Shown one piece after another: positions 1,841 to 52,412 of a stretch of 64,000 nt of DNA. The notes under the pieces are model-generated. The model was not told the DNA's origin. It worked only from the letters and a program-made list of their open reading frames with translations, and made no database searches. The stretch is from Antedon mediterranea (Eukaryota > Animalia > Echinodermata). The position numbers and the translations under genes are program-made. Each line of letters starts with the position of its first letter. Within the stretch, counting starts at the first letter, position 1. The stretch spans positions 15,968,948 through 16,032,947 of the forward strand of contig NC_092673.1 in assembly GCF_964355755.1 (NCBI RefSeq). Reading direction: 5' to 3'.

Positions 1841-2703
1841 TTAAGAACAGTTCCGTCTCTTATCTTATGACTTTTCGGGGAAAAATGACATTATTAAAGT
1901 TGTTATATAAAATTTGATACTAGTAAGTGTCAATAGATGGTTCTTAAATACATGACCTTTGGTAAATATCTGAAAATTGCACTGTACACAAGGCAAATAA
2001 ATACAGATATGATGGAATTTATGTTGTCAAATATAATTTTCATCCTGAGAATTACCTGAATTTTGTTTATTGCATGGCATTGTTCACCAAATTCCTGTCT
2101 TGGTACAATTGATGATGGGATGGTTTAAGGCTTCATGATATGATATGATCTTCATCGAGTCATGATATGATATGATCTTCATCGAGGAAAATGGTTTAAA
2201 CTAAATTTGTTATCGTTAATATCTAACTTAGCTTAATTATGATATTGGTTTCATTGGGTGTTAAAAATCAGTACTGAAAGTATGTACCAACTTTCTCTAC
2301 CATTGAGTATAAATTCTAGAAGTTGCACTTAATTTACTAAATTTCCCATTACGTAAATTTATATGTAAATTCATTTAACTGCTTATTGGCTTCATATTGT
2401 TAACATCTAAACATTTGTTTGTACAATTTTATGAAATATGTATTTTATTAATGTTCAAATTTTGTGATTGATATTGTACAGTAAGTAGATTTTAATGATT
2501 ACTTACATTAAGTAATAGGCTAACAATCACTAGATCTGATCCATGGTAATATATTATATTTTGTTTTCATTTATCAATAATGATAATTAGAATTTTATCA
2601 CATTATTTAGCAGTAATTGTTGTTGTTTGTATTTACAGAAAAAAACAATTTCACATAATGTCTGTTGTCAGTATTTATAAACTTCATTATGATTCCTTTC
2701 CAG

Positions 2704-2823
2704 TATGGTGACACTATATTACATTCATATCTGGGGAATCGTGGATATACAACAACTATACCTACCTTAGAAATAGTGACGTGTCTCATTCAGCATGGGG
2801 CACCAGTAGCATTGCAAAATAAG
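2704..2823 (+). CDS. Ankyrin-repeat exon A1 (40 aa, phase 0-0)
   Basis: ttccag|YGDTILHSYLGNRGYTTTIPTLEIVTCLIQHGAPVALQNK|gtaatg; fits ankyrin consensus GxTPLH...LEIVxxLIxHGA. Confidence 0.85.
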
Positions 2824-5800
2824 GTAATGTACAGGGATTTGCTAGTGTAATAAGCTAACATTATATAGATCTGCTGAAGTAAACCATTTAATGAGAGAAA
2901 AAAGTAAGCACATTAACAAAAATCAAATTTTTGAATTAGTAATTCGTTTGAACGGATTAATAATCTGTTCAAACGAATTGCAACATATACAACAAGTGCC
3001 ATTTAAAGTATATGTTGTAATTCGTTTAAACGAATTACTAATTTGTTTAAACAGATTACTAATTCGTTCAAACGAATTACTAATTCGTTCAAACAGATTA
3101 GTAATCCGTTTAAACAAATTATTAATTTGTTTAAACAAATTATTAATTTGTTTAAACGGATTACTAATTCGTTTGAACGAATTAGTAATCCGTTTAAACA
3201 AATTATTAATTCGTTTAAACAAATTAGTAATCCGTTTAAACAAATTAGTAATTCGTTTGAAAGAATTAGTAATTCGTTTGAACAAATTAGTAATCCGTTT
3301 AAACAAATTAGTAATTCGTTTGAACGGATTAGTAATCCGTTTAAACGAATTACAACATATACTTTAAATGGCACTTGTTGTATATGTTGCAATTCGTTTG
3401 AACGGATTACTAATTCGTTTGAACAGATTATTAATCCGTTCAAACGAATTACTAATTCGTTAGAACGGATTACGTTCGAAAAACATACACTTAAAATGGC
3501 ATTAATGGGCCTTCGTAACAAACCAACTAAAAAAATAACTAAATAGTTATATATGATTTATGATAACTGATTTAAAGTGTACAGTTACCTATCATATAAC
3601 ATAAATCTTTAATTTTCTCAATGAAAAATCTTCATAGTAACCTACAATAATAATAATATCCTGGATTTATATAGCGCCTAATGTTGTTAAACCTCTAAGC
3701 GCTGAACATTTTCCTGATCAAACACCTATGGAAACATTCTCCCATAACGCAGCTAGTAATAAGCGCAAAGTTGTGTCTTGATCTAACCGGGTTCCCAATT
3801 ATACACCTGGGTGGAGAGAGGCAAACGTAAAGTAAAGTATCTTGCCTAAGGATACAAGCAATGCGGCGAGAGTTGGATTCGAAACTCGATCTCACGATCA
3901 GCAGTCCAACGTCCTTACAATGTTGTTAACATTTTTATGACCTTAAAACAAATATAAATTGCTCATTATTACTGTATGTACTTTAAGATAACGATTGACA
4001 ATGGTCTAATTAATTGTAAATATGAAATAAAATGGGACATGCTACATTTGACTATTAATAAACTAACAAATTAAAAAATGTTTATGTTAAAAATAGAATC
4101 TGATTTCAATAAAAAAGGATTATTAATTGTTAATAACCTGCTCCCGCCCTTTACTTACTTTACAATAAAATACTTCTGTAAGTCTTATCACATACAGTAT
4201 GAATATGGCCTTAAAGAGATCCTTTTCCAAACAAACATTTTGCACAAAAGGAAGAGAAATGTAAATAATGTTTAGTTTAGTAAAAATGTTTGAGCAATGC
4301 GATTTCAAAAAGAAATTTAATATGAAATTATTCTTTTCAAACAGTGCCGTATCTTATCTTATGACTTTTTGGAAAAAATGATTCTATTAAAGTTGCCAGT
4401 TAAAATTTGATATACTGGTAATTAAGTGCCCACAGATGGTTCTCGAATACATAAACTTCGGTAAATAACTGAATATTGTCTAAGTCGGACTGTACACAAA
4501 GCAAATAAATATAGATATGATGGAATTTATGTAGTCAAATATAATTGTCATCTTGAGAATTACCTTAATTTTGTTTATTGCATGGTATTGTTCACCAAAT
4601 TCCTGTCTTGGTACATTTGATAATGGGATGGGATCGTCAATATAGTACACTGGTTTTCATTAGGTGTTAAAAATTAGTACTGAAAGTATTTACCAACTTT
4701 CTCTACCATTGGGTAAAAATTCTAAAAGTTGAACTTAATTTACAGAAATTTCCCATTACGTAAATTTATATATAAATTCATTAAACTGCTTATTGGCCTC
4801 ATATTTTTAATATCTCAACATTTGTTTGTACAATTTTATGAAATATTTATTTTATAACGTTCAAATTTTGTGATTGCCATTCAGGCCCGTATCCAGGGGG
4901 GGGTGCGTTGGGTGCAGACGCACCCCCCCAAGTCCCAAAAGGTCCACTATTTCCTCGGTTGGTATTTTTTCTTGTCTTGTTTAACTAAAGACAATATCAT
5001 TATATATATACAAAATTTACATTATCAATGGTATACAAACAAAAATATGCTAATATAAAATGAAAAAATACCGGTAATTAAATTACGGAATCTAAACTGA
5101 CTACAAACTCGATATAAAACATGCGCAGTCGATCATGTGACGACAAGCAATAGCTTAGCGCTTCATGTACGCGGTACGCGGTAAAGTGTTTGCTGGAGAA
5201 ATACAACTTAACGTCAGGGAACACGTGTACTTTTTGTCGGGGAATATAATATACAGTAAAAAGCGTTCGCGTTCACTTCGTAGCTAGCTTCAGCGCCTAG
5301 AAAACCGCGACGTTTCATTGACCGTGAGAGTACGTCAGAGTGATATTATGCACTTAAAATGCATTCATTATTGCCAGCGATCTAACTTACTACTAAACAA
5401 TAGCTAGGTACGCACTTGTCTGGCGGTATCCCTTTGTACGAATCGTTCAACGTTGGGTCGAGACGCGTGATATCAAGTTTCATCCAGGGACCAAAATGTG
5501 TAATGTGTTATTTTCCAGGCGAAGTTTACCGACGGTTACGTCGTGTACTGCGTCGACGTACGCTACACTACAGCAAAAACGAATTATGTTAATTGTTCGT
5601 TTGTTCACCAATTTTTTAATTTACAAGTAACCTTCTGTACCGTGGGGCACCTAAAATAAATTTTTCATCCATTACTAAACAAAAAAACATGCCATTTTCG
5701 CTTAGCCAACATTATAGCTATAGTTATTACATTTTCAATATCCTGTTTGTCATGAATTTCTCACCACTCGGAAGTCCAGATGGTACGCATGTATATACCT

Positions 5801-8800
5801 GGGAGGAATAAACTTTTTTCCCCGACTGAAAAAGGTCTACGCTTGCGTTTTTTAAGCCTCTAGGCCTGATGTTTCCAAAGTATAAAATGCAATTTTTTGA
5901 AGACCTGCAGCTCTAGTTTTAAACATTTTCTTAGCTCAGCCCCAACAATAAAGCTGGTCATATTTCGAAGAACAAGAAGTACATTTTCCGGGACCTAACA
6001 TCTCTATTTTTCAAGCATTTCTTAGCTCAGTCACAACCCATGATAGGGACTTATATATTTTTTTTCATGTTTTGAAGTATAATAAGTCCAATTTCCGGGA
6101 CCTCCAACTCTATTTTTCAAAATTTTCTTTGAACTTTTATTTTTTAAATTGAAAAATATGGATTGAAACAGTCATCGCGCATCGTTTTTTTGCACGCAGT
6201 ATTTTATTTATGCATTATAAAAAATGGAAAAAATGGCTACCCTAAATCTGATTAAAAAGACCTCAAATGACGCTAGAACGCGTTGCTTCCGGGGGCTTCG
6301 CCCCCTGGACCCACCGGGGGCCCTTGGCGGCCCCTGGCCCTCAGCCTAGTGATGCTCGCTTCGCTCGCATAGCCCCCTCGTCGGGGAATGTAGCCCCCGC
6401 GTCGGGAAGATCCTGGCGCCACCCCTGCTGAGTTGGCCTCATCATGAAAGCGTTAAGTTCTGGTGTCCATCGTTCAACTAGCCCAAGCCACAACAGAGAG
6501 TCTGACATCAGTCTTTAGAACGTCAAATAACGCAAATTTTTCCAGGGCCTTCGGCCCCTGGACCCTGACCGGGGGCCCTTGGCGGCCCCCTGGCCCCCAG
6601 CCATTGTTGCTCGCTTCGCTCGCACCCCCCCATTATAAATGCTGCATACGGGCCTGCCATTGTACAGTAATTAGATTTTGATGATTACTTACATTAAGTA
6701 ATAGGCTAACAATCACTAGATCTGATCCATGGTAATATATTATATTTTGTTTTCATTTATCAATAATGATAATTAGGATTTTATCACATTATTTAGCAGT
6801 AATTGTTGTTGTTTGTATTAACAAAAAAAAAACCAATTTCACATAATGTCTGTTGTCAGTATTTATAAACTTCATGATTACGATTCCTTTCCAGAATGGA
6901 AACACTCCATTACATGAGTGTCTGTGGCTTGGAGACCCTACCTTAGAAATAGTGACGTGTCTCATTCAGCATGAGGCGCCAGTAGCATTGCAAAATAAGG
7001 TAAATGTATAGGGATTTGCTAGTGTAATAAGCTAACATTCTATAGATCTACTGAAGTAAACCATTTAATGAGAGAAAAAAGTAAGCACATTAACAAAAAT
7101 CAAATTTGATTAAAACAAACCAAATAAAAAATAACTAAATAGTTATATATGATTTATGATAACTGATTTAAAGTGTACAGTTACCTATCATATAACATAA
7201 ATCTTTAATTTTCTTAATGAACAAAAAAATCAATTTTTTTTATATATTCAGTTATTAATTAACAATTATTGACAATGGTCTAATATGAAATAAAATGCGA
7301 CAACTACTAAACAATTAAAAATGTTTATGTTAAAAAAATTAATAGAATCTGATTTTAATAAAAAATAATTATTAATTAAAAACCTGCTCCCTCCCTTACC
7401 TTACAAAAAATGCTTCTGTCAGTCTATCCAGCTAATTATGAAAATGGCCTTAAAGAAATCTTTTTCCAACCTAGGGTTCTCACAGATGCTTCTCGAATAC
7501 ATGAACTTTGGTAAATAACTGAAAATTGCACTGGACACCAGGCAAATAAATACAGATATGATGGAATTTATGTAGTCAAATATAATTGTCATCCTGAGAA
7601 TTACCTTAATTTTGTTTATTGCATGGTATTGTTCACCAAATTCCTGTCTTGGTACATTTGATGATGGGATGTTATCAGGTTTCATGATATGATATGATTT
7701 TCATCGAGGCAAATGGTTTAAATTAAATTTGTTATCGTTAATATCTAACTTAGCTTAATTATGATATTGGTTCATTGGGTGTTAAAAATCAGTACTGAAA
7801 GTATTTACCAACTTTCTCTACCATTGAGTATAAATTCTAGAAGTTGCACTTAATTTACTAAAATTTCCCATTACCTAAATTTATATGTAAATTCATTTAA
7901 CTGCTTATTGGCTTCATATTGTTAACATCTAAACATTTGTTTGTACAATTTTATGAAATATGTATTTTATTAATGTTCAAATTTTGTGATTGATATTGTA
8001 CAGTAAGTAGATTTTAATGATTACTTACATTAAGTAATAGGCTAACAATCACTAGATCTGATCCATGGTAATATATTATATTTTGTTTTCATTTATCAAT
8101 AATGATAATTAGAATTTTATCACATTATTTAGCAGTAATTGTTGTTGTTTGTATTTACAAAAAAAACCAATTTCACATAATGTCTGTTTGTCAGTATTTA
8201 TAAACTTCATGATTATCATTCCTTTCCAGGATGGTAACACTCTATTACATTCATATCTGAGGAGTGGATATCTGAGGCGTGTATATACAACAACTATACT
8301 GGTACCTACCTTAGAAATAGTGACGTGTCTCATAATGTCTGTTGTCAGTATTTATAAACTTCATTATGATTCCTTTCCAGTCTGGTGACACTCTATTACA
8401 TTCATATCTGAGGAGTGGAAATACACCTACCTTAGAAATAGTGACGTGTCTCATTCAGCATGGGCCACCAGTAGCATTGCAAAATAAGGTAAATGTACAG
8501 GAATTTGCTAGTGTAATAAGCTAACATTATATAGATCTGCTGAAGTAAACCATTTAATGAGAGAAAAAAGTAAGCACATTAACAAAAATCAAATTTTATT
8601 AAAACAAACCAAATAAAAAAATAACTAAATAGTTATATATGATTTATGATAACTGATTTAAAGTGTACAGTTACCTATCATATAATATAAATCTTTAATT
8701 TTCTTAATGAACAATAAAATCTATTTTTTTTATATATTCAGTTATTAATTAACAATTATTGATAATGGTCTAATTAATTGTAAATATGAAATAAAATGGG

Positions 8801-11800
8801 ACAACTACTAAACAAAAATTAATTGAATCTGATTTTAATAAAAAAAAATTATTAATTGATAATGATTATTAATTAATAATGTGCTCCTTCCCTTATCTTA
8901 CAAAAAAAATTCTTCTGTCAGTCTATCTAGCTAATTATAAACATGGCCTTAAACTACATCTGGAGATCCTTTTCCAACCTAGGATCTTTTTGTGCAAACA
9001 TTTTTTGATCTTCATCGAGGCAAATGATAAATTTGTTTTGATCGTCAATATTCATTCATTCATTCATTCATTCATTCAGGCTTATTGCCTGACTTTATTT
9101 ACTTTAGGCCTCTGGCCCCTAGTAATTAATAAAATAATAATTACATTGAAAAATAAAGCAATTTATGGTCACAAGATAAATGAATTAATTAACTTATAAG
9201 CATGATAAATATATTTAGATAGATTATCAATAATTATTGGATCCTGTGATGAAATTAAACGGCAGAATTTAAAAGTATTTGGATTTTCAAAAAATAAAGA
9301 AGGTATAAATTTTTTTCTGATTTCCTTGTAACGAGAGCAAACTGTAACAAAATGATATTCACCTTCAACTTCATTTATATCACATATTTTACATAACCTA
9401 TTGTTGCGCTCTATTCTTTTCCATCTTCCCTTTTCTACCTCTAGTTGAAGTGTGCCCAGTCTTTTAGTTGACTTAAAGCTCGCTTATATCTAGTATCAAG
9501 GGTCTGTAGTAAGTATCCATCTACTCCGAAATTGTTTTTGAACATTTTATAATATCTTAATTTTGAAGAAATATTTATGCTTTCATGAAAGGATTGGCGT
9601 TCCATATCGGTTAGCCTTTCTTTTATTTGATTAATTATATGAAATTTATCAAGGACATTATTTTGTGAAAACCATATGTTTCCATGACCAATAGAGCATA
9701 ACATATGTTTTACATCGCTTACCCAACAATTACTATTATTTTGCGCTTTATGAAGTTGAGATTTATAACATTTCTTCGCATATCTGTCCTCGTTCATATT
9801 TACTAGTCTTACCCAATAACGGATAACATTGAGTACACCTTCGATTGATAAAGAGAATCGTCTACATTCCCCTCTAATTGAAACATTTGTGGCTGATTTC
9901 CCGACCCCTAAAACATATCTACAGAAATTATTTTGAATATCATCAATTTTGTTGTTGTTTAGTTTTCCCCATATTTCACTACCATACAGTATAATTGGGT
10001 TTATTTTAACATCAAATAAGTTAGTTCCAAATATTCACTAGTAAATGTCCATATTTCTGATATACTATATTTTTGAGTGAGAAAAGTGCTTTATTAGCCT
10101 GTGTATTATTTTGTTCTCTGGCCTTTTCCCAAATTCCTGAACAATCGAAAGTGACTCCAAGATATTTAAGAGATTTTACTATTTCAATTTCTTTACCAAG
10201 TTAATTCCACTTTTCGTAGTTCTTAAGTTTTCCATTTAAAAAAAATACTATTTTACTTTTGTCAATGTTAACTACCAATCCCTACCTATTACAATAATAT
10301 GCTAATTTATTTAAAAGATCTTGTAATGAGTACACTGTATCACTGATTAAAACTAGATCATCTGCATACAGTAGGTGATTAATATTTATGTTATCAATTT
10401 TTATTTTGTTTCGATTTTCAGCAGTATGATAACTCAGTTATATCATTAATTATTAAATAATAATGAAGATAAAGGTGACCCTTGTTGTATTCCTACTTCA
10501 CATTTAAAGGATTCTCCAATTTGTTGCCAACCTTTACATGCCCTTTTAATTTACTATACATTGTTTTTATAACTTTGATTATTTTACCTTTTATACCAGA
10601 TTTTCTTAGTTTACAAGGAAATCGTGTCTAATAGAATCGAAAGCGCGTTTTAAATCTATAAACGCCATGTACACAGTTCCTCGTTTTTTTTAGAAATATT
10701 TGTTAACAATTGTGTATAAAATAAATATGTTATCAATAGTACGACAATCTTTTCTAAACCATCCCTGTTCTTGATGTAATATTTCATTTTCTTCTGTCCA
10801 TTTGCTTAATCTATTGCTTATAATGTATAACAAGCACGAATGTGCAATACTCGGGGTACAGCGAAAGAAGCTGTAATGACGTCATAAGACCGGATGTAAC
10901 GTCACATACACATCAATAACCGCGCTACCAAATACGGCTATACGGTACCATCTTCGAGACGTGATATGGCTGCATCCGGTTTGAAATTAAAAAATCCAGC
11001 TCTATAGATTTGAGGACATGTCCCTGTAGTATATTCATGCTAAATCTGAGCTCAATACTACAACGAATAAGGGAGGAGTAGTACTTTATAAATCGCACTT
11101 TTTGCTCAATAGTGTCCAGATGGAAGAAGAAGAGGAAAAGATGAGAGAGTCCTAGACTCAGGTACCCCGGGTAATAAAACGAGATATACTCTATATCATA
11201 TTACGTATACAGTATATTTCACCATAAAGTTAAAGAAAAATAGGTTTCGTCAGGGCTCGAACCGGGACCTTCTGCGTGTTAAGCAGACTTGACCACCACT
11301 ACACTACAAAACCTCTTACACTAAAAATGTGGGTTACACAAAGTTTTTTAATCCATTTAAATTACAAATAAATATGGTAATAAGCATAAAGCAAAATAAA
11401 CGTGTGTAAAAGTGATAATTACCGATTACACAAAGTAAGTATTTAAAAAAATAATAAAAATAAGATATAGTGTGTATAATTATCATATTGCGTATACAGT
11501 ACTTTTCACCATATAAAGTTTTAAAAAAAAAACCTTCGTCCGGGCTCGAACCAGGTACCTTCTGCGTGTTAAGCAAACGTGATAACCACTCGCCAAGAAG
11601 CCGCATATAACTACATAACGCTGTGGTGTGTGTCACACATTGTGGCTTCTTAATTGAAAAAATTAATTAACAAAAAAGCACGAATGTGCGATACTCGGGG
11701 TGCAGCAAATGAAGCTGTAATGACGTCATAAGACGGGATGTGACGTCACATACACATCAATAACCTACCAAATACGGCTATATGGTACCATATCCGAGAC

Positions 11801-32800: not shown

Positions 32801-35800
32801 GCGTTTAAAATTATTCAAGATGTGCTTAAAACAAAACCATATGGAAATCATGTCTACCACAAATATTTTGCCATTGAAAACAGTCAACCAACTACAGATA
32901 AGAGCTTTAGTGATCTCAAACAAGTTATTGATACACTTATGAAAGCTTTAGAAAAGCCTTTTCCTTTAAAGTGGATGCGTTTTCGATGTGATCTACATGA
33001 TCTAAGAGGAAAAAAACAGCCCTCCTTTTCTTTGTGTCCTTTAAAAGAGGTAAATGGTATTTGTTTTGTTTACATTTTTCGAAATATTAAGGCGCAAGTA
33101 TCTATCAAGTATCTAAAAAAAAAAATTTACGTTTCTAAATATAAGTACCCTTTAATTAAAAAATGTCCATAGACTAGCCAATTTAGATTACAATATCCAA
33201 AATCAAATTTTCATCTCAGATATTTGCTGCCATTGTTTTATTTATAAATTGTGTGTTTGAAAATACTGAGGTAATTAGCCATTGAAATTGAATATTTCAA
33301 ACTATTTTTTCATGTAATACCCACATTTTTTATTTAATTCTGAATAATATTAATTATTATTTCTTTTAGATAAAAATTCTGACAAGTAAGAATGGTATTG
33401 TTGAAGAAAAAAACAAATCAGTCCTGCTTAACTACTTGTACGATCTTGGTGAAATTGTTTACATGCCTGACAACAAATTATTAAGGGATAAAGTTGTGCT
33501 AGATCCGATGAGGCTGGTTGAAATTGTCACCAAATTTGTAACTGTGGTTCCCCCAAAATATCCCGTAAGTAGACTCATGTAATGTCTTGCATTGTAAAAA
33601 CGTGTTAAAGTAGTATAATTACTGTTCTGTGTAATTTATTATTCCTTAGCAAAGAATTTGCCTTTAGTAATATTTGATAGAGATGCTTAACATTTTCTAT
33701 AGATAAAATAAAAAGTATGCTGTAAGGCATCATTTGAAATTTACTGTAATTTTTTTACAAGTTTTAATTATTTCACTTTTAATATTCTGCTTTCAATCTG
33801 TTATAATTGAAGCACTATAAAAGTGAATAGCACAGCAGTAAACTAACTTGGAGTAATTTCACAGTTTAACCCTTTCACTGCGTGTATTACCGGGTATAAA
33901 CATGTTGTTGAACTGCATATAACCATCATTACCGGGTACACTATATTTTTGATAAACTTAAATATATTTGCAATGTTTTAAAACTATTTTCCTGCACTAC
34001 ATGCAACCTCTATATTTTTTAATATCATCGTATCGTACCATTTTCTTACTCCAAACTAACCAACCTTTTACCCACTACAAAAATATTTACAAAATTATCT
34101 CATTTAGTAGGTTTTTGCAATTTATTAAAAATCACCTGTCTCTCAATGTTATAATGCACAGTGAAAGGGTTAAACCACGATACTGTATTATACCAACACA
34201 TGGTTCATCTATATTCTAAATGCTTACTGTATCTATTTCCGTCATCCTCACAACTGTTATAAACACAAAATACGATGCATGGTTGATAGTTGGTGTTGTT
34301 TTTAGGCCGCTAAATTTAGAAGATCTTTTGATAAGCTTGACAAAGGCATACTGGAAGAAGACTTGTTGCAAAAATTATGGAAAGATAGTAAAGTTGATGA
34401 CGGAAAGAATTTTGAGTTCCTTGTAGCACTGATGATTCAATTTGGTTTCATATTTGAGAGAAAGACAACCAGCAGCCAAGATAGGGCAAGTACATCTATA
34501 GTAGGTTATGTTTCTTTAATCTTTCATTTGATGCATGTAAGATTTGGAATAAAAAGTATTATTCTAATAGTTTGGATTTAAATGTTCAGACAAAGTTTGA
34601 ATAAACTTTCTAGTGAAAATGTCTAAATGATAGAGTATCTTTAGTTTGCTTAAAGTAATCTAAATGGCATTGTTACGAATTAACAATTTCAGAAATCTGG
34701 AAATGGAAAACGATCCTTTTTTGTGCCACTGCGACTTGCTATCAAGACAAGTCAAGTGAGACAATTACCTGATGATTCACAATCTATCAGTAGGCCTATC
34801 TATTACGACTTTGAGGGATATCTGCCAGACGTGCTGTTTCCGTATTTAATTATTGAATTCCTTAACAAATTTCAAAAGGAAGGAGTTGACCCAATACTCA
34901 CATGTAATTATGCAGAACTTTACCTCAACGAAAATCATCATGTGATTTTGTCTCTTGACAAATTTATTACTAAGAAGGATGAGCGAAAGTTCTTGTTAAA
35001 GGTAATAAATAATCTCTATAATGAATGTTCAATAAATATCACTAAATTATGAAAGTTAAATATTGTTGCTTAGTCTTTCCCAGAATTTACTTTAAATGCA
35101 TCTAAATTCTGATAGCAAAACATCACATCTATTTTTACTTTCTAGATGGCTATTAAAAGAACAGATTCTTTTGACGAAACGAGTAAAGAGGAACCTTCAG
35201 CTGAAGCATGCAAATTGGTATGTTATGTTACCAGTTATATTATGTACCTGTTTGGACGTAGTTTATGAAAATACACATAGAACAATTATTTTAATTTACA
35301 ACAAAAAATTTACACATGTTTCTTTAAACTATGCTTTTAGATCAGTAAATATGTTAAAAATCTGTAGCAAATTGTCCAACTGTGTGTCTCTAGGTAGCAT
35401 TTTCCTTAAAAGTTTCACAATGTATAGTGAGTGGTACCAAGGATATCAAATTCCACTAGAAAAAATGTAAAATCATTTAAATTTTATTCACTGGATATAA
35501 CTTATGATTTATCAAAATTTACATCTATGTTTTCTTTTTTTTTTCAATTGAATTGTAAGTAATTTTAATGTGTACTACCTAAAATATATTCCATATATAC
35601 TTTGTGAGCTACTGCACCATTTATGCTTTCATATTGGCTGGTGTGTGTTATCAATCGACATTAAATTTATATCTTTAGGCTTTGTCAACAGTTGAAAAGT
35701 CATTTGAACATTACAAAGATGGTGGTAGAAGGAGGATTCCATTCAAGAGATGCATTCCTTGTCGGTGTAGTGATCAATTAGACAAGAAGCATTTTCAAAT

Positions 35801-38800
35801 TCTTGAAGATTTCCAATGCATGAAGTTAACGTGCATAGAAACTGGCAATGTTATTACGATGGATGTCACATGTTACAAGCGGCTGTTTGGAGGTAAGAGT
35901 AATTAAATTTACTTATTTTTATTAAGTACATTTTCATTAATACATGAAGGACTCTCACTCATCCCTACAGCACAGGAAACTGAAAAACAAAAGGCTATTT
36001 CTGTTCTATCAACAATTAGTGACCTATTTGTGCAAAAATTGACATGTTTAAATAATTATAGAATAGAGAAAGAGGATACTGTACCTTATTTGAAAATAGA
36101 CATATTTGATAATACTCTTCCAGTAGTAGTAGTACAACATAATCATTGCTGTGATATCTTCATTCCTCTTACCAATAGTAGTACTATCAGAATCATTATT
36201 GATAATCTATACATATGCTGCTATTAGCTGTGATATCTTTATTCCTCTTACCAGTAGTAGTACTAGCAGAATCATTATTGATAATCTATACATTGTTACA
36301 ACATGCTGCTATTAGCTGTGATATCTTCATTCCTCTTACCAGTAGTAGTACTATCAGAATCATTATTGATAATCTATACATTGTTACAACATGCTGCTAT
36401 AGCTGTGATATCTTTATTCCTCTTACCAGTAGTAGTACTATCAGAATCATTATTGATAACCTATACATTGTTACAACATGCTGCTATTAGCTGTGATATC
36501 TTCATTCCTCTTACCAGTAGTAGTACTATCAGAATCATTATTGATAATCTATACATTGTTACAACATGCTGGTATTAGCTGTGATATCTTCATTCCTCTT
36601 ACCAGTAGTAGTACTATCAGAATCATTATTGATAATCTATACATTGTTACAACATGCTGCTATTAGCTGTGATATCTTCATTCCCTTACCAGTAGTAGTA
36701 CTATCAGAATCATTATTGATAATCTATACATTGTTACAACATGCTGCTATTAGCTGTGATATCTTCATTCCTCTTACCAGTAGTAGTACTATCAGAATCA
36801 TTATTGATAATCTATACATTGTTACAACATGCTGCTATTAGCTGTGATATCTTCATTCCTCTTACCAGTAGTAGTACTATCAGAATCATTAGTGATAATC
36901 TGTACAAAGGAAATAACAGAATGTGATGATGATCTAAAACACTTCAATAGTTTATAAAATACATTGCTGCTTTTATTATAACAATTGAACATGTGATAAT
37001 GTGCTGTTGGCAATATAGAATTTGTATAGCATCCATTGAATTCATTTCATTTTATTCATCAAAAAAAAATAAAATTATAGAACATGTAAAGATAAAATGC
37101 ATAAAAGATGAAAAGGATCAACAACTAAAAGATAAAAGCTTGTATAGGGTTGAAGACCTAAAATAACTAAACAACTATAAAACAGCTAATACTAAAATAG
37201 GAAACATAATAAAATATATATATAAAGTAACATTATTTCATTATTGTATATTTTATTTGTTACAGATGATGTGGGGACAAGTTCAAATCAAGGTATGTTA
37301 TATTAGACCTATGTGTCACTAATGTTCTTGTGATGTGCCCACATATGGACATGATGATGTCATATCAATACCATATTTGGGCATATCACTCATATTTGGG
37401 CACATCACACTTTTTTTGTCAAACAAGTTTGATAGTGTAAACAGAGCTTTAGTGATGCATTACTTTCTTAATGATCAAATCTCAATCATCCAGTGTAAAA
37501 GTGCCATGTATATAAACAAATTCTAACGTACTTTAAACATATACTTCTCATTTTTATCATTTTAGGCAGTAGTGATGAGGATGAAAGAGAAGGAACATCA
37601 CTGAGTCACCAACACCAACAAAGTGAAGGTAAGATTCTAGTAAATAGAGATAGTGATATTCTGATGATAACGATGTTGAACAAGATGATGATAATTTGAA
37701 TTTGAAATTTAAGTTGGTGATAATGATGATAATATACTCTCTCTAAATTTATGATCATACAACGAACACCAAGAATATAAGGTGGATTATTATAATAAGA
37801 ATACAACTAGACTTGAAAGTGATTCGCGCAAACCCAATAAAAATGTTTGTGAAAGTATGTTATGTTCAAGATTTGTGGTTATTTTTATATATGTGTTTTT
37901 GGCGACGAACGCTTTCAATATATGACAATAGTCAAATGACGATAGTACTGTACTTACAAAAAATGTAGAATTGTTTATGGTCATCATTCACCTAGGTCTA
38001 GATGGCAAAGAAGATTGAACTCATGCAATGGACGATCGGGCTAGGCTAGTCTGTAGCTAGTAATACTAGTTTACTAGAGTAGGACAGCAAGGCCTAGTCT
38101 GCGTGGGACACACAGTACAGATGTTCATGTATCATCACAGCCGCATGCAATTTAAATAAATTAATTCAATTCGGACCTGAACTAAATAAACTAGCATTAC
38201 CAAAAACATATTTGAGAAATAGTTTGACAGTAATGCAATGTCTTTGTGGGGAACACATTGGGAAAAGCAAAACCAAAAACAAGCCTCTACCTGCCCGTGG
38301 CCTAAGTCCTTAATTTTAATTGTTTAATAAACCAAAACTTGCCACATATACAATATCAAGTATTCCAAAGTTGACAGTAGTTTCATATTTGTATTGAACT
38401 TGACCCGAACCTGACATTATTCCACAAATATTTTTTTTTTGAAATAGTAGAGTTGAGAGAGAAAATAAAACAAATTTAATATTGACCTCAATTACTGTTT
38501 TACATTTTGTTGATATTCTGTACTGATGATTAAATAAAAATTGATTTTGGAGTGGGTACAATAATGATCACTGTCAAATGAATGTCCTGTCATTTTATTT
38601 GCAGACAATTTCCGAGACCTAAAAGCTGGTCTCAGTGGTTGCTTTGATGGCGAAAGATATCGTTGGCTAAGGTTCCTACTATTCGATAAGTTGGATGTCG
38701 GTGAAATTACAAATCAAGATTTTAATGCAAATGACTTGCTCAATGAACTTGAAAACAAAGGTTTAATCTTGCCAACCAATGTTAACTTGCTGTTAGAGAT

Positions 38801-40034
38801 CACAAAAACATCTGAAATAGCACAAGCCAAAGATCTTGTATCAAAGTATATGAGAGACAACAACATTCAAAATAGATATACTGATGATAGAACCAAGTTG
38901 TCATCTTACAGAAAGCGACTGTTTAAAGCCCTAAAACAAATTGACCCACGTGCATTACGTAATGTTATATCTTTCTACGAGTTAAGAAGATATAGCTTCT
39001 CCAATGTTTGGGATGCAGTTCTCTATCTGGAGATTCAGCAATTATTAGCAGATGATCCAGACAAAATAAATCGGTTTGCAGATCGTCTCGGCACAATAGC
39101 AAGTAACATTCTACTTGGTAGGCTTTCTACTTTATATTATATTAAGTTTTTTGTATTGTTATTGTTATTGAATCATTCATTTTTTTAAACAGTTTACGTA
39201 ATTGTAATTTGATTAAAATAATATTTGGTTTAATTTTAATCATTAAAATTTTACATTAACTGATTATTTATAGGCAATAGTGAGAAGAAATGAGACAGCA
39301 TCATCAAGTCACCAATGTGAACAAAGTGAAGGTAAATTATTCAGTAAAGTTGGGAGATAAACATAAAAAATGAAAATTATATATGATTGTAATATGATTA
39401 AGATAATAATGACATAGAAGTTGGTGATATTGAGGATGATATTACTCTAAAATTTAGGATTTATAAAACAAAGAATATAATAATGTAACTTATTGTTATA
39501 GGAATAAAATAATTAGAGTGAGTAGTTTTTTTGTAGTTGTTTCTAAAAGCTGATTATAGATATAGATAATATATAGATTATAATGATATTCAAATAATGA
39601 TGATGATTATTAAACAATACTTATAACAATGCTGAATTTATTACTTGAAATTTGAAATGATTTTGTGGTCTTTCATGAATTTTTATTCATAAATCTTAAA
39701 ACAGTAATTATGATAATGAATGCTCTCTGAATTTACTTCCTGAAATTGGAAATGATTTTGTGGTGTTTCATGAATTATACTGTGATCATATTCAAATAAT
39801 GATTATGATTTCAACAATGATTATGATGCTAATCTACTGAATTTATTACATTGGAAAATATTGCTGTGTTTTTATCAATTTATATTTATTATTCATAATC
39901 TTAAAACAACAATTACAATTACAATTTCCACAATAATCATGATTACTGTTATACTAAATTTATTGATACTGTTTTTCATTTGTATAGATCTCTCAGAAGA
40001 TGATGAAGACTTAGTCACAGACTTAGCCCAATGA
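2704..40034 (+). CDS. Multi-exon ROCO-family gene (5' end upstream of window): ankyrin repeats - Roc GTPase - COR - tandem DED; no kinase
   Basis: 25 exons joined by hand through AG/GT sites with matching phases: 2704-2823, 6895-6999, 8381-8488, 13204-13311, 19116-19220, 20143-20227, 24499-24591, 26505-26585, 27656-27803, 28208-28293, 28633-28697, 29776-29851, 31461-31618, 32244-32333, 32460-32639, 32792-33049, 33370-33564, 34306-34500, 34693-35001, 35146-35217, 35679-35892, 37266-37292, 37566-37628, 38605-39117, 39988-40034. Total 3501 nt, open to TGA. Roc, COR and DED motifs occur in the expected order. Confidence 0.85.
2932..3517. mobile_element. Non-autonomous element built from 21-bp subrepeats in a large palindrome
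   Basis: Units like ttagtaattcgtttgaacgga; block ~2968-3018 is the reverse complement of ~3352-3402; one end ...gggccttcgta; absent from the other ankyrin introns. Confidence 0.6.
3645..3918 (-). mobile_element. tRNA-derived SINE with L2-like tail
   Basis: On the minus strand: B-box-like gtttcgaatcc, central 'tctctccacccaggtgtataattggg' core, tail gcgctatataaat...(tat)n. Confidence 0.65.
4882..6656. mobile_element. Non-autonomous TIR DNA transposon (CAGG termini, 5-bp TSD; hAT5-like by inference)
   Basis: TIRs caggcccgtatccag / ctgcatacgggcctg; CCATT on both flanks; interrupts the conserved ankyrin intron. Confidence 0.8.
6895..6999 (+). CDS. Ankyrin-repeat exon A2 (35 aa, phase 0-0)
   Basis: ttccag|NGNTPLHECLWLGDPTLEIVTCLIQHEAPVALQNK|gtaaat. 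Confidence 0.85.
8230..8333 (+). pseudogene. 3'-truncated ankyrin exon A3a (no donor; fused to the acceptor region of A3b)
   Basis: ttccag|DGNTLLHSYLRSGYLRRVYTTTILVPTLEIVTCL, then intron sequence 'cataatgtctgttgtcag'. Read-through 8230-8488 is 259 nt, out of frame. Confidence 0.8.
8381..8488 (+). CDS. Ankyrin-repeat exon A3b (36 aa, phase 0-0)
   Basis: ttccag|SGDTLLHSYLRSGNTPTLEIVTCLIQHGPPVALQNK|gtaaat. Confidence 0.85.
11242..11313 (-). pseudogene. tRNA-Val(AAC)-like sequence, probably non-functional
   Basis: GGTTTTG...TCTGC-TTAACAC-GCAGA...GGTTCGAGCC...CGAAACC; acceptor and anticodon stems pair, D- and T-stems mismatched. Confidence 0.7.
11532..11602 (-). pseudogene. Second tRNA-Val(AAC)-like copy
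   Basis: ggcttcttggcgagtggttatcacgtttgcTTAACACgcagaaggtacctggttcgagcccggacgaagg; acceptor stem degenerate. Confidence 0.65.
13204..13311 (+). CDS. Ankyrin-repeat exon A4 (36 aa, phase 0-0)
   Basis: ttccag|DGNTPLQSYLWSVYTPTLEIVTCLIQHGAPLALQNK|gtaaat. Confidence 0.85.
13872..17840 (-). mobile_element. CR1-group LINE, near-complete ORF2 plus ORF1 C-terminus
   Basis: ORF1 remnant 17479-~17830 (HRIG...RPIIVRF); ORF2 with APE, RT (YADD) and C-terminal CTCG...H...C; poly(A) tail at ~13872. Confidence 0.93.
13984..17284 (-). CDS. LINE ORF2 (2A-like leader, APE endonuclease, reverse transcriptase); one frameshift near 16920
   Basis: ORFs 16907-17284 and 13984-16932: HINIRS, LTETWL, YRPP, GDMN, DHSP, GVPQGSVLGP, YADD. 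Confidence 0.9.
18117..18515 (-). mobile_element. Second copy of the 3' end of the 9051-12730 LINE at the homologous intron position
   Basis: Same junction gatcgtcaata|ttcattcattc...caggcttat; near-identical to 9051-9425. Confidence 0.9.
18531..18892 (+). mobile_element. LINE 3' fragment
   Basis: Encodes HNKCTRSQSNNDLSIP...GKRTFVYRSTKLWNSLP; A-rich tail; short 'tagat' duplication at the flanks. Confidence 0.7.
19116..19220 (+). CDS. Ankyrin-repeat exon A5 (35 aa, phase 0-0)
   Basis: ttccag|YGDTPLRSYLKRTAPTLEIVTCLIQHMAPVGLQNK|gtaatg. Confidence 0.85.
20143..20227 (+). CDS. C-capping ankyrin exon (phase 0-1)
   Basis: aatag|DGNTLVSLLESNRRIERERKTEILNFLE(G)|gtaagt; GNT start and EILNFL end typical of a terminal ankyrin repeat. 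Confidence 0.75.
21240..21850. repeat. ~168-bp tandem repeat (~3.6 copies), probably internal to a non-autonomous element at ~21020-21992
   Basis: tctactta...atag recurs at 21251, 21419, 21587, ~21749. Confidence 0.8.
22421..24012 (-). mobile_element. 5'-truncated CR1/L2-group LINE
   Basis: FLDLSKAFD, GVPQGSILGP, LFADDT; ORF 22859-23686; 'catatt' on both sides; empty site at ~26025. Confidence 0.9.
24499..24591 (+). CDS. Linker exon copy 1 (phase 1-1)
   Basis: tttag|(D)LPSTVDEQFQTQFQKHKSDKQKTKLLKPES|gtgagt. Confidence 0.7.
26505..26585 (+). CDS. Linker exon copy 2 (phase 1-1)
   Basis: tttag|(D)LPSTVDEQFQKPTSDKQKTKLLKPES|gtaagt; duplicate of 24499-24591 with homologous flanking introns. Confidence 0.7.
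27656..27803 (+). CDS. Roc GTPase exon with P-loop (G1)
   Basis: DIAARELDFQKAYNEALKDGSVPVNLGMLKVIGQEGVGKTCLINACLGK; GxxxxGKT at 27751-27774. Confidence 0.9.
28208..28293 (+). CDS. Roc exon with switch I (G2, TDGI)
   Basis: ccag|EFEERHVVTDGIAVIRTASTTWTEAKADS|gtaaac; phase 2-1. Confidence 0.85.
28633..28697 (+). CDS. Roc insertion exon 1
   Basis: tacag|GNTIQQYTKMVTDKLRKKKTVN|gtatgt; phase 1-0 (an alternative phase-0 donor exists at 28692). Confidence 0.65.
28724..29491. mobile_element. Foldback/MULE-like MITE with ~17-bp subrepeats
   Basis: ggacaactaccccct arrays on the left, gggtagttgtcc arrays on the right; TSD aatgaaaa(c), 8-9 bp; internal inverted-repeat insert ~28857-29130. Confidence 0.8.
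29776..29851 (+). CDS. Roc insertion exon 2 (acidic)
   Basis: gtcag|IDMKPPIDDDEDGIVVDYNNDGNND|gtatgt; phase 0-1. Confidence 0.65.
29983..30855. mobile_element. Non-autonomous Kolobok-like element
   Basis: Ends attgtccccaaaaacatg / caaggggaca; homologous in reverse to 31819-32148 and to the end of the 1-1840 element. Confidence 0.65.
31461..31618 (+). CDS. Roc exon with G3 (WDHGGQ)
   Basis: GTDTATQAVPF...EETFNIWDHGGQLIYHGLHR|gtaagt; matches Roc WDFxGQxxYxxxH. Confidence 0.9.
31675..31798 (+). mobile_element. Degenerate SINE-like fragment
   Basis: tRNA-like 5' part and (accttt)n tail. Confidence 0.35.
31819..32148. mobile_element. Kolobok MITE
   Basis: TTAA|tatgtattgtcccc ... ggggacaatacatct|TTAA. 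Confidence 0.8.
32244..32333 (+). CDS. Roc exon
   Basis: MFMTLQALYIVVFDLSKPLDDLATFIDSSG; typical Roc 'F...alYxvVfdls' segment. Confidence 0.9.
32460..32639 (+). CDS. Roc exon with G4 (VGTHKG)
   Basis: RKFQHHWTNLQFILSYILSVYSHS...PTILIVGTHKGKLGWTEEQQNDE. Confidence 0.9.
32792..33049 (+). CDS. Roc G5 / start of COR exon
   Basis: AEKAFKIIQDVLKTKPYGNHVYHKYFAIENS...PFPLKWMRF; the PxxW motif marks the start of COR-A. Confidence 0.9.
33370..33564 (+). CDS. COR-A exon
   Basis: LLNYLYDLGEIVYMPDNKLLRDKVVLDPMRLVEIVTKFV; matches COR hallmark LxxLHxLGxIxY...VxLDPxWL. Confidence 0.9.
33870..34169. mobile_element. piggyBac-type MITE (300 bp)
   Basis: TTAA|ccctttcactg ... cagtgaaaggg|TTAA. Confidence 0.8.
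34306..34500 (+). CDS. COR exon
   Basis: AAKFRRSFDKLDKGILEEDLLQKLW...FLVALMIQFGFIFE; COR 'GIL...LW...LxxLMxxF' pattern. Confidence 0.88.
34693..35001 (+). CDS. COR exon (FFVPLRL, COR-B start)
   Basis: KSGNGKRSFFVPLRL...IYYDFEGYLPDVLFPYLIIEF; COR 'yfvPxxL' and 'F...lP..lF..L' motifs. Confidence 0.88.
35146..35217 (+). CDS. COR-B exon
   Basis: tctag|MAIKRTDSFDETSKEEPSAEACKL|gtatgt; phase 0-0. Confidence 0.75.
35679..35892 (+). CDS. End of COR-B / Cys-His-rich exon
   Basis: ALSTVEKSF...CIPCRC...KH...LTC...CYKRLFG|gtaag; phase 0-1. Confidence 0.8.
36147..36905. repeat. 88-bp intronic minisatellite (~8.5 copies)
   Basis: Unit ttagctgtgatatcttcattcctcttaccagtagtagtactatcagaatcattattgataatctatacattgttacaacatgctgcta. 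Confidence 0.95.
37266..37292 (+). CDS. 27-nt microexon (phase 1-1)
   Basis: ttgttacag|DDVGTSSNQ|gtatgt; strong splice signals, frame-preserving. Confidence 0.6.
37566..37628 (+). CDS. Acidic spacer exon (phase 1-1)
   Basis: ttttag|GSSDEDEREGTSLSHQHQQSE|gtaaga. Confidence 0.7.
38605..39117 (+). CDS. Tandem death-effector-domain (DED-DED) exon, phase 1-1
   Basis: DED1: FRDLK...WLRFLLFD (FL motif)...DLLNELENKGLILPTNVNLLLEI...AKDLV. DED2 begins LSSYRKRLF, like caspase-8 DED2 'ISAYRVML', and contains VLYLEIQQLL. Confidence 0.8.
39274..39331 (+). pseudogene. Frameshifted paralog of the spacer exon; inclusion gives GNSEKK*
   Basis: 58 nt, intact AG/GT, homologous to 37566-37628; TGA at 39291-39293 in the incoming frame. 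Confidence 0.65.
39988..40034 (+). CDS. Terminal coding exon DLSEDDEDLVTDLAQ*
   Basis: tgtatag acceptor, phase 1, TGA at 40032-40034, AATAAA at 40038-40043. Confidence 0.65.
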
Positions 40035-40264
40035 TGCAATAAACATGGATATTCTATTCATACAAATGTTAGACGGCGTTAAACTGTTAAAAACTGGTAC
40101 CAGTGCAATCTACCTGTGAACTCTTTTATCTGCAAATTGAGTAGTGATAGTGAGATGTAATGTTAGCGTGTCATACCTCAATGTACAATAGTGTAGATAC
40201 CTTGGTATCCCAGAATTAAAACACACTAGTTATTGTCTGTGGTGTTTTCTTTCCAAAAAAAATT

Positions 40265-43170: not shown

Positions 43171-43642
43171 ATCTCACAGTGTGTTGATTGACTTGGTACT
43201 GTACACCATGAACTGTGGCTGCTGTGTACAATCTCACAGTGTGTTGATTGACTTGGTACTGTAGACCATTCACTGTGGCTGCTGTGTACAATCTCACAGT
43301 GTGTTGATTGACTTGGTACTGTACACCATGCACTGTGGCTGCCGTGCACAATCTCATAGTGTGTTTGACTTGGTACTGTACACCATGCACTGTGGCTGCT
43401 GTGTACAATCTCACAGTGTGTTGATTGACTTGGTACTGTACACCATGCACTGTGGCTGCTGTGTACAATCTAAAAGTGTGTTGATTGACTTGGTACTGTA
43501 CACCATGCACTGTGGCTGCTGTGTACAATCTCACAGTGTGTTGATTGACTTGGTACTGTACACCATGCACTGTGGCTGCCGTGTACAATCTCACAGTGTG
43601 TTGATTGACTTGGTACTGTACACCATGCACTGTGGCTGCTGT
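43171..43642. repeat. 60-bp minisatellite (~8 copies)
   Basis: Unit atctcacagtgtgttgattgacttggtactgtacaccatgcactgtggctgctgtgtaca. Confidence 0.95.
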
Positions 43643-44236
43643 GAGTACAGTACATGCCATATCTGAATTTCCTCAACTCAGAGGATGAATGCCTGGCCAC
43701 TATACATTTATGATACAGTTTTGTCACAATTGTGTGCATTAACTATTATTACATTTTCAGATTTGTGATTTGTGATAATGCATTATGTGTACTGACAAGT
43801 ATCTGGCATCTATTATCAGATATCAATTGTCTGGTAAAATTGTCAACTACATGTTGTCTTATGATTACCTCATCCTTTGGAAGGAACATAAAGTTGTGAA
43901 CAACCTAAATACACATTTTATTTGTCAAGTAGGATAATTGTAGGTGCTGTACTATGGCTACTGTAAATCTGAATTCAGTTTCCAGTTATACCGTCAAAAA
44001 TACTTTTTCTTTTTTGTTTTATTGTCATTAATTTATTGTGACTTAAAAGTTTAATTTGTTATTTTGAATATTATCATTTCTAATGTACAGTATACTACAA
44101 AGGATTGTGTTGTTTTATGTGTTAGATTGTGCACATAAGACATGTGTATTGTTACCTCACAAAATAAAACTGATAGGAAATTTAATTTCATTATGCAATT
44201 TTATCTTAATTAGTCAGTAAAACATTTTTTCATGGC

Positions 44237-44576
44237 TTAGACTAAGAGCACTCTTCATACTAAATGGAGATTTGGATGTATAAGTTTGGATGTTTTAGAC
44301 TTAGAGCACTCTTCATACTAAATGGAGATTTGGATGTATAAGTTTGGATGTTTTAGACTTAGAGCACTCTTCATACTAAATGGAGATTTGGATGTATAAG
44401 TTTGGATGTTTTAGACTTAGAGCACTCTTCATACTAAATGGAGATTTGGATGTATAAGTTTGGATGTTTTAGACTTAGAGCACTCTTCATACTAAATGGA
44501 GATTTGGATGTATAAGTTTGGATGTTTTAGACTTAGAGCACTCTTCATACTAAAGGAGATTTGGATGTATAAGTTT
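44237..44576. repeat. 58-bp minisatellite (~5.8 copies)
   Basis: Unit ttagagcactcttcatactaaatggagatttggatgtataagtttggatgttttagac. Confidence 0.95.
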
Positions 44577-52000: not shown

Positions 52001-52412
52001 AGAATAAAAAGTGATAATCATGATTAAAACGTTTTCTGGAAGCTATTGGATTGTAGATACGAAATCATGAGAACATTTTGCCAATTGGATATTGTGACAT
52101 CATCATATGACCAGTTAAATAAAAAAAGTCGTATTTTCGTCTTTTGCGTCATAGTTCACTACATTTCAAAGAGTGCGTATCAATATTTCACGTATTCAAA
52201 TTTCTTCTACACTTTAATATGTTGTTGCTAAGATAATTTCCTTCCGAAATTGCTACCTTTGTGTTTCATTTTGAAACCGTCAACATGTTAAAAATTTGAA
52301 TAAATAGCGGGTCCCGTAATTTCACCTATTCTACACTGTATGTGATAATGATATGTATACAGATTATACTGTGTATAATATGACACAAAATAACAGAATT
52401 CAGCAATAAAAA

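Follow-up and report, generated by a model that had tools for sequence, protein, structure and literature searches.

Single-ankyrin exons ahead of Roc-COR and tandem death effector domains in Antedon mediterranea: a candidate diversifying cytosolic sensor of a feather-star ROCO family

In the feather star Antedon mediterranea, a stretch of NC_092673.1 (15,968,948-16,032,947, forward strand) carries a row of single-ankyrin exons ahead of exons for a Roc-COR GTPase and tandem death effector domains (DED), which raises the question of whether this is a sensor with a binding surface that can be rebuilt, and if so, whether in the germ line or within the life of an animal. The window, to which all positions refer, is the whole analysed stretch of 64,000 nucleotides (GC 31.5%). 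A preliminary description of it, made from the letters alone, had proposed a diversifying intracellular immune receptor. We hold it slightly more probable than its opposite that the locus is a copy of an expanded feather-star ROCO family which encodes a cytosolic sensor, the predicted binding face of which diversifies in the germ line under selection. The features on which the argument is built are the following.

1838..19337, + strand: row of duplicated units, each with an intron and an ankyrin exon (core of about 1.3-1.5 kb), broken by insertions (self-BLAST; public model P0015)
2704..2823, + strand: ANK1 exon, 40 aa, phase 0-0, loop 5 residues longer than in the shortest copies (Ank E 0.0012)
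6895..6999, + strand: ANK2 exon, 35 aa, phase 0-0 (Ank E 7.5e-6)
8230..8334, + strand: ANK3a, broken copy that lacks donor and 3' end, 151 bp ahead of ANK3b (sequence comparison)
8381..8488, + strand: ANK3b exon, 36 aa, phase 0-0 (Ank E 7.5e-4)
13204..13311, + strand: ANK4 exon, 36 aa, phase 0-0 (Ank E 0.0077)
13863..17830, - strand: LINE retrotransposon within the ANK4-ANK5 intron, apparent target-site duplication of about 10 bp (RVT_1 E 2.3e-34)
13984-16950, - strand: open ORF of this LINE, 988 aa, endonuclease-RT (RVT_1 E 2.3e-34)
19116..19220, + strand: ANK5 exon, 35 aa, phase 0-0, His of TPLH changed to Arg (splicing model; no Pfam match)
19336..19382, + strand: ankyrin exon remnant (3' end), compact spacing of about 200 bp (nhmmer E 0.0022)
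20143..20227, + strand: C-terminal capping exon, phase 0-1, peptide identical to that of P0016 (splicing model and P0016)
24499..26585, + strand: two duplicated linker exons, phase 1-1 (24499-24591 and 26505-26585; splicing model)
27656..32639, + strand: Roc GTPase domain, 7 exons, G1 GQEGVGKT, G3 WDHGGQ, G4 VGTHKG without Asp (splicing model, profiles, Foldseek of paralog)
32792..35892, + strand: COR domain, 6 exons (COR-A E 2e-14 on P0001; paralog fold)
37266..37628, + strand: two short acidic spacer exons, phase 1-1 (splicing model)
38605..39117, + strand: tandem death effector domains, single 513-nt phase 1-1 exon (Pfam, Foldseek, VIA; paralog model)
39274..40034, + strand: alternative 3' ends, an exon from 39274 (stop after 6 codons) or 39988-40034 (public model, splicing model)

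By motif scan and manual splicing these parts can be joined into a gene model of 25 exons and 1166 codons without internal stops, all 24 introns of which are GT-AG, in the order of five ankyrin exons, the capping exon, two linker, seven Roc, six COR and two spacer exons, the 513-nt exon and a terminal exon. The five intact ankyrin exons (ANK1, 2, 3b, 4 and 5 with 120, 105, 108, 108 and 105 nt) are all bordered by AG and GT and have kept their frame and both splice sites, and as all are of phase 0-0, gain, loss or exchange of a repeat cannot break the frame. The symmetric one-repeat exons of the preliminary description were thus found in five of five cases, and so were its at least five intact units, its broken unit (ANK3a) and, in the piece at 19336-19382, its remnants. 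One repeat per phase-0 exon is ordinary in ankyrin genes. A Pfam search matched Ank in four of the five intact exons with E values of 7.5e-6 to 7.7e-3, in one of them above the curated cut-off, and gave no Ank match for ANK5.

That all this is one gene had been claimed as well, for which the open 1166-codon frame speaks, but no start exon is found in the window, across which the N-cap peptide of the public model P0015 has no match either, and P0001, the public model of the locus, begins only at 29175 and lacks the ankyrin, cap, linker and P-loop exons. P0001 equals the spliced model over 783 residues, with a match of 100% at the DED exon, and the 3' exon from 39274 that it chooses is common to the paralogs P0002 and P0003. 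In P0016, the same capping peptide as at the locus joins the ankyrin part to linker and Roc, and we infer that the ankyrin exons of the locus are likewise spliced to cap, linker and Roc in one gene. Rfam recognized only one tRNA-like match in the window.

As far as its sequence tells, the locus encodes a ROCO protein, with Roc followed by COR. Pfam Roc and COR-A are above cut-off on P0001 (COR-A E 2e-14), and the Roc profile matches are to prokaryotic Roco and LRRK2. G1-G3 are intact (GQEGVGKT, VVTDG, WDHGGQ), and G4 reads VGTHKG without the Asp, which is replaced by Gly or Ala in the Antedon subfamily of the locus and retained in Anneissia and in a second Antedon Roc type; the G4-G5 motifs of Roc domains are described as variable in the accessible part of PMC6337361. 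The order of Roc-COR and tandem DED downstream of the array, as originally proposed, is borne out by the motifs at the locus, by Pfam on P0001 and by the predicted fold of the paralog P0004, which is 79% identical at the DED exon and on the AlphaFold model of which the folds were examined. With Foldseek this model matched LRRK2 (E 6.4e-14) and bacterial Roco (E 1.1e-11), and with VIA archaeal Roco2 (Z 22.5, rmsd 3.7, 305 aligned) and, in residues 800-975 with a pLDDT of about 80-90, the tandem DED of caspase-8 (Z 15.9, rmsd 2.8, 163 aligned).

Of the checks that had been proposed, Pfam left ANK5 unmatched, and AlphaFold, which succeeded with the paralog, gave the locus's own DED exon a pLDDT of only 63, with low confidence in the first half. 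This exon has a Pfam DED match of E 2.6e-4, which is under the curated cut-off, and its best VIA Z is 7.2; the top rows of its Foldseek search were all caspase-8/cFLIP assemblies (best E 0.13), and its Atlas neighbours are DED clusters at 0.90-0.92. The tandem DED of the locus is therefore confirmed on the predicted fold of a close paralog, its own exon giving the weaker signal. DED1 has an FL-like patch, and an RxDL motif is absent. Like in caspase-8, cFLIP and vFLIP, the C-terminal 170 residues of the paralog model adopt a tandem DED fold, whereas the identity to the DEDs of these proteins is 16-19%, the position is C-terminal, and a caspase domain is absent.

The array itself is less regular than the near-identical units of about 1.3-1.5 kb that had been described. 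In self-BLAST, the unit pieces are mostly 86-96% identical, with some stretches of 70-83%, and only about 200 bp 5' of each ankyrin exon reach 96-98.5%. From exon to exon the spacing is 4191, 1335, 151, 4823 and 5912 bp, because of unit-specific insertions, among them a 21-bp tandem repeat, an inverted-end element, LINE fragments and the LINE with the open 988-aa RT/endonuclease ORF. A homogeneous, near-identical tandem array can be rejected on these identities and transposon interruptions. Two of the unit-specific insertions have apparent target-site duplications, and a LINE fragment has itself been duplicated (9006-9423 and 18073-18515, 90% identity in self-BLAST), so duplication and insertion must have alternated. 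Insertions that are private to single units argue against a rapid turnover of whole units at the locus, and with such insertions present in several of the units, turnover seems to have taken place over evolutionary time and not in the soma. The array probably extends 5' of the window: P0015 consists of an N-cap and three repeats, the second of which is one residue off ANK1, which suggests further units upstream.

Reads of four runs were placed on 18880-20400 only (1521 bases), with ANK5 as the one ankyrin exon inside. No contig among those listed spans this stretch, and the best run contains a fraction of 0.49 of the sampled words of 31400-39200, which would suit an assembly artefact of collapsed or falsely duplicated haplotypes. 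Such an artefact was rejected, and its probability is next to negligible, as the units have their own substitutions and their own insertions, two of them with the mentioned target-site duplications, as all four runs contain ankyrin-unit sequence, and as arrays of the same kind are present in models on three different contigs. In the DNA-like runs the ankyrin unit is covered to a much greater summed depth than nearby intron, which is not a measure of copy number. Contigs in all four runs step back by 305-323 bp inside an ankyrin unit, which implies that somewhere in the family the introns are 216-220 bp long and compact units, each about 320 bp, follow each other head to tail, and the 1.3-1.5-kb unit of the locus is probably a later, inflated form.

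The central signal of the locus lies within the ankyrin exons. In the five intact exons, three blocks were compared, the borders of which were picked after viewing the alignment: the first 12 codons (5' block), the last 21 codons (3' block) and about 200 bp of upstream intron. In the 5' block 18 of 36 sites are variable (23.9% mean pairwise difference), in the 3' block 7 of 63 (4.9%), and in the intron 11 of 217, and the excess in the 5' block is significant against the intron (Fisher p 8.9e-11) as well as against the 3' block (p 3.2e-5), while the 3' block and the intron do not differ significantly (p 0.14). Besides this excess, the loop length varies. The same is seen when ANK1 is compared with ANK3a: 5 of 454 intron sites differ (1.1%), and 5 differences within the first 36 exon bases cause 5 residue changes in twelve codons. 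The duplicated linker exon served as control, in which 3 of 81 sites differ (3.7%) as compared to 2 of 60 and 4 of 194 in its flanks (2-3%), and as it diverges like its flanks, there is no exon excess of variation there.

Whether selection has caused this pattern is less clear. The 5' block can be explained by a minimum of 18 nonsynonymous and 3 silent changes, a ratio that against 27.7:8.3 sites is not significant (p 0.26; five copies only), and as the silent difference is also elevated (pS 0.16), part of the divergence may come from old exons imported by conversion. Selection and the conversion import of older exon halves thus both remain as explanations. The scaffold half has no purifying signal relative to the intron (6 nonsynonymous, 2 silent; p 0.14), and consensus ankyrin residues are substituted, with Pro of TPLH changed to Ile or Leu, His to Gln or Arg, and Gly to Glu or Met; the Arg codon of ANK5 at the TPLH His site is present in none of the four runs. 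Consensus changes, lacking purifying signal and unseen ANK5 codon argue against a function of this particular copy.

It is also to be considered that the family functions while the array of this copy is decaying or disconnected, in which case its units would have been duplicated passively within a repeat-rich tandem cluster, older paralogs would have donated the divergent exon halves in short conversion tracts, and the locus would not be under selection. The broken copy and the remnant, several insertions including a young LINE, the changed consensus residues with an ANK5 that has neither a Pfam match nor its Arg codon in any run, the raised silent difference in the 5' block, and a public model P0001 without the array would all agree with it. 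We nevertheless regard this decay as unlikely, as none of the five exons has lost its frame or a splice site, as divergence is not evenly spread but restricted to the loop and the initial third of the exon and is not seen in the control exon, and as the same columns are variable in two further arrays, P0044 and P0101.

These further arrays come from a comparison of 27 repeat rows, which were taken from the window and from six models. Columns 1, 3, 11 and 12 and the loop vary in all three long arrays, that is, the locus, P0044 (8 repeats) and P0101 (6 repeats), of which the latter two have been homogenised separately. Among the five repeats of the locus, identity is 0.90 in the constant half and 0.53 in the variable half, and when the three long arrays are compared, the constant half is 0.79-0.90 identical within an array and 0.33-0.61 between arrays. 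In the tree of the 27 rows, repeats group by gene or subfamily, and homogenisation, which had been claimed for the locus, is to judge from these alignments family-wide. Window repeats interleave in the tree with those of P0015, P0016 and P0017, with which shared ancestry fits equally well as repeat exchange. Among the five units, 14 of 28 informative site pairs are incompatible, from only 8 informative sites, and exon and donor letters unite ANK1 with ANK5, contrary to the intron signal; the incompatible pairs suggest a mosaic origin of the units. In agreement with the preliminary interpretation, most of the variation falls into that half of the repeat which comprises the beta-turn and the first helix. 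Of the six positions that are randomised in DARPins, four are found in the variable columns. When aligned to DARPins, these columns come to lie at the beta-turn and the end of helix 1, which according to the available part of PMC8229355 constitute the DARPin contact surface, and the variable positions may thus form a ligand face made up of beta-turn and inner helix.

A search for paralogs, which had been proposed, found 27 Roc-COR proteins, 21 of which are Antedon models, 5 models of Anneissia japonica and 1 a further protein. All family evidence comes from computer gene models, many of which are fragments. Probably 16 of the 21 Antedon models are on one chromosome. In four of them, P0016, P0022, P0044 and P0101, ankyrins are joined to Roc via the cap, and P0044 has the full order of N-cap, 8 repeats, cap, Roc-COR and DED, while P0015 and P0017 are ankyrin-only fragments with N-cap. 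None of P0015, P0017, P0022, P0044 and P0101, which all begin with an ankyrin N-cap, has a kinase match. Anneissia has ANK-Roc-COR (P0037, P0185) and Roc-COR-DED models (P0033, P0034). In a quick Roc-COR tree of 25 rows, which include neither DAPK1 nor LRRK, 18 Antedon sequences are united in a single clade (SH-aLRT 98) next to those of Anneissia, and inside this clade flanking modules are swapped, including kinase, death, N-terminal DED and hydrophobic, predicted transmembrane tails. P0075 has 25 similar ankyrins together with Roc, CARD and death matches. Of the 150 matches listed in a profile search with P0016, a minority, mostly crinoid, contain a Roc-COR profile, the list being dominated by generic ankyrin proteins.

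Evidence for transcripts is confined to a single run, X8, the RNA type of which is guessed. Two of its contigs cover the ankyrin exon alone (19117-19221 and 19120-19221), and four contigs have a loose end (median 13 letters) that begins precisely at the donor site; in frame, it reads xGNTP, a cap-like exon start that is absent from the window. This loose end fits a spliced transcript of a paralog, and splicing at the predicted ankyrin boundary is thereby supported for the family, not for this copy. X8 covers introns as well, and thus DNA or pre-mRNA must be present. The joint of ANK5 to the cap (19220-20143) is absent among the 15 joints listed of 17, and none of the runs matching 31400-39200 is on record as RNA.

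It could also be that exon skipping or somatic recombination generates ankyrin combinations per cell or per transcript within a lifetime. Symmetric exons with near-identical acceptors and donors would permit it, the contig step-backs imply that the family has compact units of about 320 bp at other places, and splice variants are reported for brown-algal ROCOs in what is available of PMC11378527. On the other hand, no skipped-exon transcript is seen in the run contigs over the stretch that holds one ankyrin exon, motif scan, tblastn and nhmmer found no minus-strand ankyrin exon in the window that could serve as an inverted or intronic reservoir, and kilobases of private insertions lie between the units, for which reasons such a repertoire is decidedly improbable. 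In its boldest form, an antibody-like cytosolic receptor family of feather stars would recombine DARPin-like one-per-exon cassettes among dozens of copies, splice them combinatorially or rearrange them somatically, and lead from Roc-COR to a caspase-8-type DED filament. If this repertoire, which we consider improbable, was real, an invertebrate deuterostome would have an ankyrin-based anticipatory immune repertoire.

The design of the locus has precedents outside the animals, and the comparison that had been drawn with ROCOs of brown algae and HIC NLRs of fungi stands, as far as the accessible parts of the respective papers go (PMC3341825, PMC11378527, PMC13449251). In brown-algal LRR-ROCO genes each LRR is one 72-nt exon, some copies are inactivated or inverted, concave sites are under positive selection, and splice variants occur (PMC3341825, PMC11378527, in the portions consulted). 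Like in these genes of Ectocarpus and Saccharina, Roc-COR stands behind the repeats, one repeat occupies one symmetric exon, there are inactivated exons, the variable sites are on the predicted binding face, and the family is clustered with many fragments or pseudogenes. The locus differs by its ankyrin exons of phase 0 and 105-120 nt with loop indels, whereas the algal exons are LRR exons of fixed 72 nt and phase 2; it has no inverted intronic exons in the window, whereas the alga has them, and it is an animal gene with tandem-DED output, whereas most algal ROCOs are, by these partial sources, only LRR-ROC-COR.

With the fungal HIC NLRs (HNWD, NACHT-ANK, NB-ARC-TPR) the locus shares gene-homogenised repeats with few hypervariable positions, an apparent sharing of repeat types between paralogs, nearby transposons, and an NTPase switch with a death effector, the effector role being a prediction here. 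It is distinguished from them by a Roc-COR GTPase with N-terminal sensor and C-terminal effector, where the fungal proteins have a STAND ATPase, and by a homogenisation that extends to the introns (PMC13449251, seen in part); the accessible text reports the HIC NLR design in animals, too. Membership in the NLRs was rejected, as there is no STAND domain and Roc-COR takes the place of a NACHT or NB-ARC ATPase, and in the absence of LRR and STAND ATPase the locus belongs neither to the brown-algal ROCOs nor to the fungal HIC NLRs. An LRRK-type protein was rejected as well, as there is no LRR and the model of the window has no kinase. By analogy with these systems, the locus is likely an animal variant of the strategy that brown-algal exon-array ROCOs and fungal HIC NLRs follow.

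Animal relatives share parts of the design. In DAPK1, the invertebrate 'DAPK1-like' proteins and Trichoplax ROCOs, the order of ANK, Roc-COR and death fold, a lineage-specific expansion and variable flanking domains are similar, going by the portions available of PMC4104024 and PMC6337361. Unlike DAPK1, the paralog models that start with an N-cap have no kinase (the 5' end of the locus being outside the window), and there is a tandem DED instead of a single C-terminal death domain, and a hypervariable exon array at the locus. According to partial sources, at least 17 ROCOs occur in Trichoplax, where they are combined with TPR, LRR, CARD and death domains (PMC4104024), fusions of ROCO with TIR or death domains are noted in Aplysia and sea anemones (PMC9334734, PMC5094078), and bacterial repeat-Roc-COR-effector proteins have been read as counter-invader systems (PMC8195603). 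The Atlas has ANK-Roc(-COR) clusters from sponges, molluscs and arthropods. The literature searched, with most subscription papers outside its scope, contained no crinoid ROCO family, no animal ankyrin-exon ROCO array and no animal ROCO family with intron-homogenised hypervariable ankyrin exons and tandem-DED output. The system as a whole may therefore be undescribed, as had been supposed, but the ANK-Roc-COR order as such is common among invertebrate database entries.

In the mechanism that we propose, the single-ankyrin exons ahead of Roc-COR and tandem DED would encode a cytosolic sensor, the ankyrin stack of which would bind its ligand by the variable face, and binding would shift the nucleotide and dimer state of Roc-COR, by which the tandem DEDs would be clustered and seed a DED assembly with FADD/caspase-8-like partners, with cell death or inflammatory signalling as the outcome. 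As ligands we envisage proteins of pathogens or non-self proteins. New specificities would arise by germ-line duplication, loss, conversion and point change of units, with phase 0-0 preserving the frame, and duplication together with probable gene conversion would keep introns and the scaffold half of the repeats alike. The open frame, the excess in the 5' block with the flat control exon, the same columns varying in P0044 and P0101, the paralog models with ANK, cap and Roc, the exon-bounded contigs of X8 and the mosaic sites all speak for such a sensor, and against it are the lack of ANK, cap, linker and P-loop in P0001, the missing ANK5-cap joint in the list, the absent G4 Asp, the non-significant 18:3, the changed consensus residues, and paralog joins that are computer models.

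Alternatively, the variable sensor may serve something other than pathogens, such as allorecognition, damage, autotomy or regeneration signalling, or it may be a DAPK-like death regulator with fast-evolving partners. The characterised fungal HIC NLRs work in allorecognition (PMC13449251) and brown-algal ROCOs respond to abiotic stress (PMC11378527), as stated in the parts at hand, and the nearest Atlas clusters bear the automatic name 'DAPK1-like'. Nevertheless, the birth and death of many copies, among which modules of both termini (kinase, death, DED, predicted TM tails) have been swapped, is an established pattern of immune families, and the counter-invader reading of bacterial Roc-COR proteins concerns just such fast-evolving repeats with variable effectors (PMC8195603, in part), so that a role apart from pathogens is quite unlikely.

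The array at the locus looks old and interrupted, and its design has precedents. As public annotation splits the genes, such a family is easily missed. Exon-per-repeat diversification on Roc-COR has so far been a matter of brown algae, and homogenised hypervariable repeats on NTPase switches have mostly been one of fungi, and an animal version with a caspase-8-type output would, if true, be a convergence of receptor design. The tandem DED would provide a direct read-out by clustering and cell death, which is absent in algal ROCOs. If the proposed sensor is real, the unexplained 'DAPK1-like' ANK-Roc-COR proteins of invertebrates would get a testable role, as NLR-like sensors in which a GTPase replaces the ATPase.

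The window holds a second intron and exon duplication besides that of the ankyrin array, at 24010-27218, which contains both of the phase 1-1 linker exons between cap and Roc, and this linker-exon duplication served as the control for the variation of the ankyrin exons. Mobile elements and tandem repeats lie within and around the array, as follows.

2933-3473: insertion 3' of the ANK1 exon, made up of 21-bp units that form a palindromic array
4877-6658: element of 1.8 kb in the intron preceding ANK2; its ends are inverted, and it has what appears to be a target-site duplication of 5 bp
9169-10034 and 11946-12728: LINE reverse-transcriptase fragments, read by eye
11242-11313: tRNA-like Rfam match (40.4 bits) within a duplicated stretch, probably a SINE
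13863-17830, minus strand: LINE lying within the ankyrin array; its 988-aa endonuclease-RT ORF is intact, and it has what appears to be a target-site duplication
21239-21849: 168-bp minisatellite
22859-24007 and 47221-51558: LINE reverse-transcriptase fragments (RVT_1 matches)
28729-29484: 16-bp minisatellite
36148-36906: 88-bp minisatellite
43171-43643: 60-bp minisatellite
44237-44576: 58-bp minisatellite
45944-46523 and 51775-52414: inverted pieces of the following repeat, upstream of its tandem copies
56996-64000: ~1.6-kb tandem repeat found by self-comparison, at least 4 copies of 75-91% identity

The ~1.6-kb repeat matched none of the 20 family proteins with which it was compared, and the first exon of P0001, the public model of the locus, is drawn from beside and within the 16-bp minisatellite array.

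The tandem-DED exon (38605-39117) is symmetric (phase 1-1), and among the paralog models the DEDs are found N-terminal as well as C-terminal of Roc (P0014, P0024, P0054). Exon shuffling of whole domains seems also to be at work in this family. Among the models P0022, P0006, P0008, P0024 and P0026, one carries two different Roc-COR units in tandem and is possibly a fused gene model, and several have, when read by eye, hydrophobic C-terminal tails that probably span the membrane.

In the Roc domain of the locus, the G4 motif (32460-32639) has no Asp and reads VGTHKG or VGTHKA in all covering models of the Antedon subfamily to which the locus belongs; by motif comparison across the models, the Asp is present in the Anneissia relatives and in a second Antedon Roc type. 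The nucleotide specificity of Roc may be altered in this subfamily.

Proteins with an ANK-Roc(-COR) arrangement are also found outside the crinoid clade of the locus, namely P0075 and P0051. In P0075 the 25 ankyrin repeats resemble one another very closely and include variable positions; in the domain search this protein also matches CARD, death and DUF4559. The ankyrin-Roc design may be widespread in animals.
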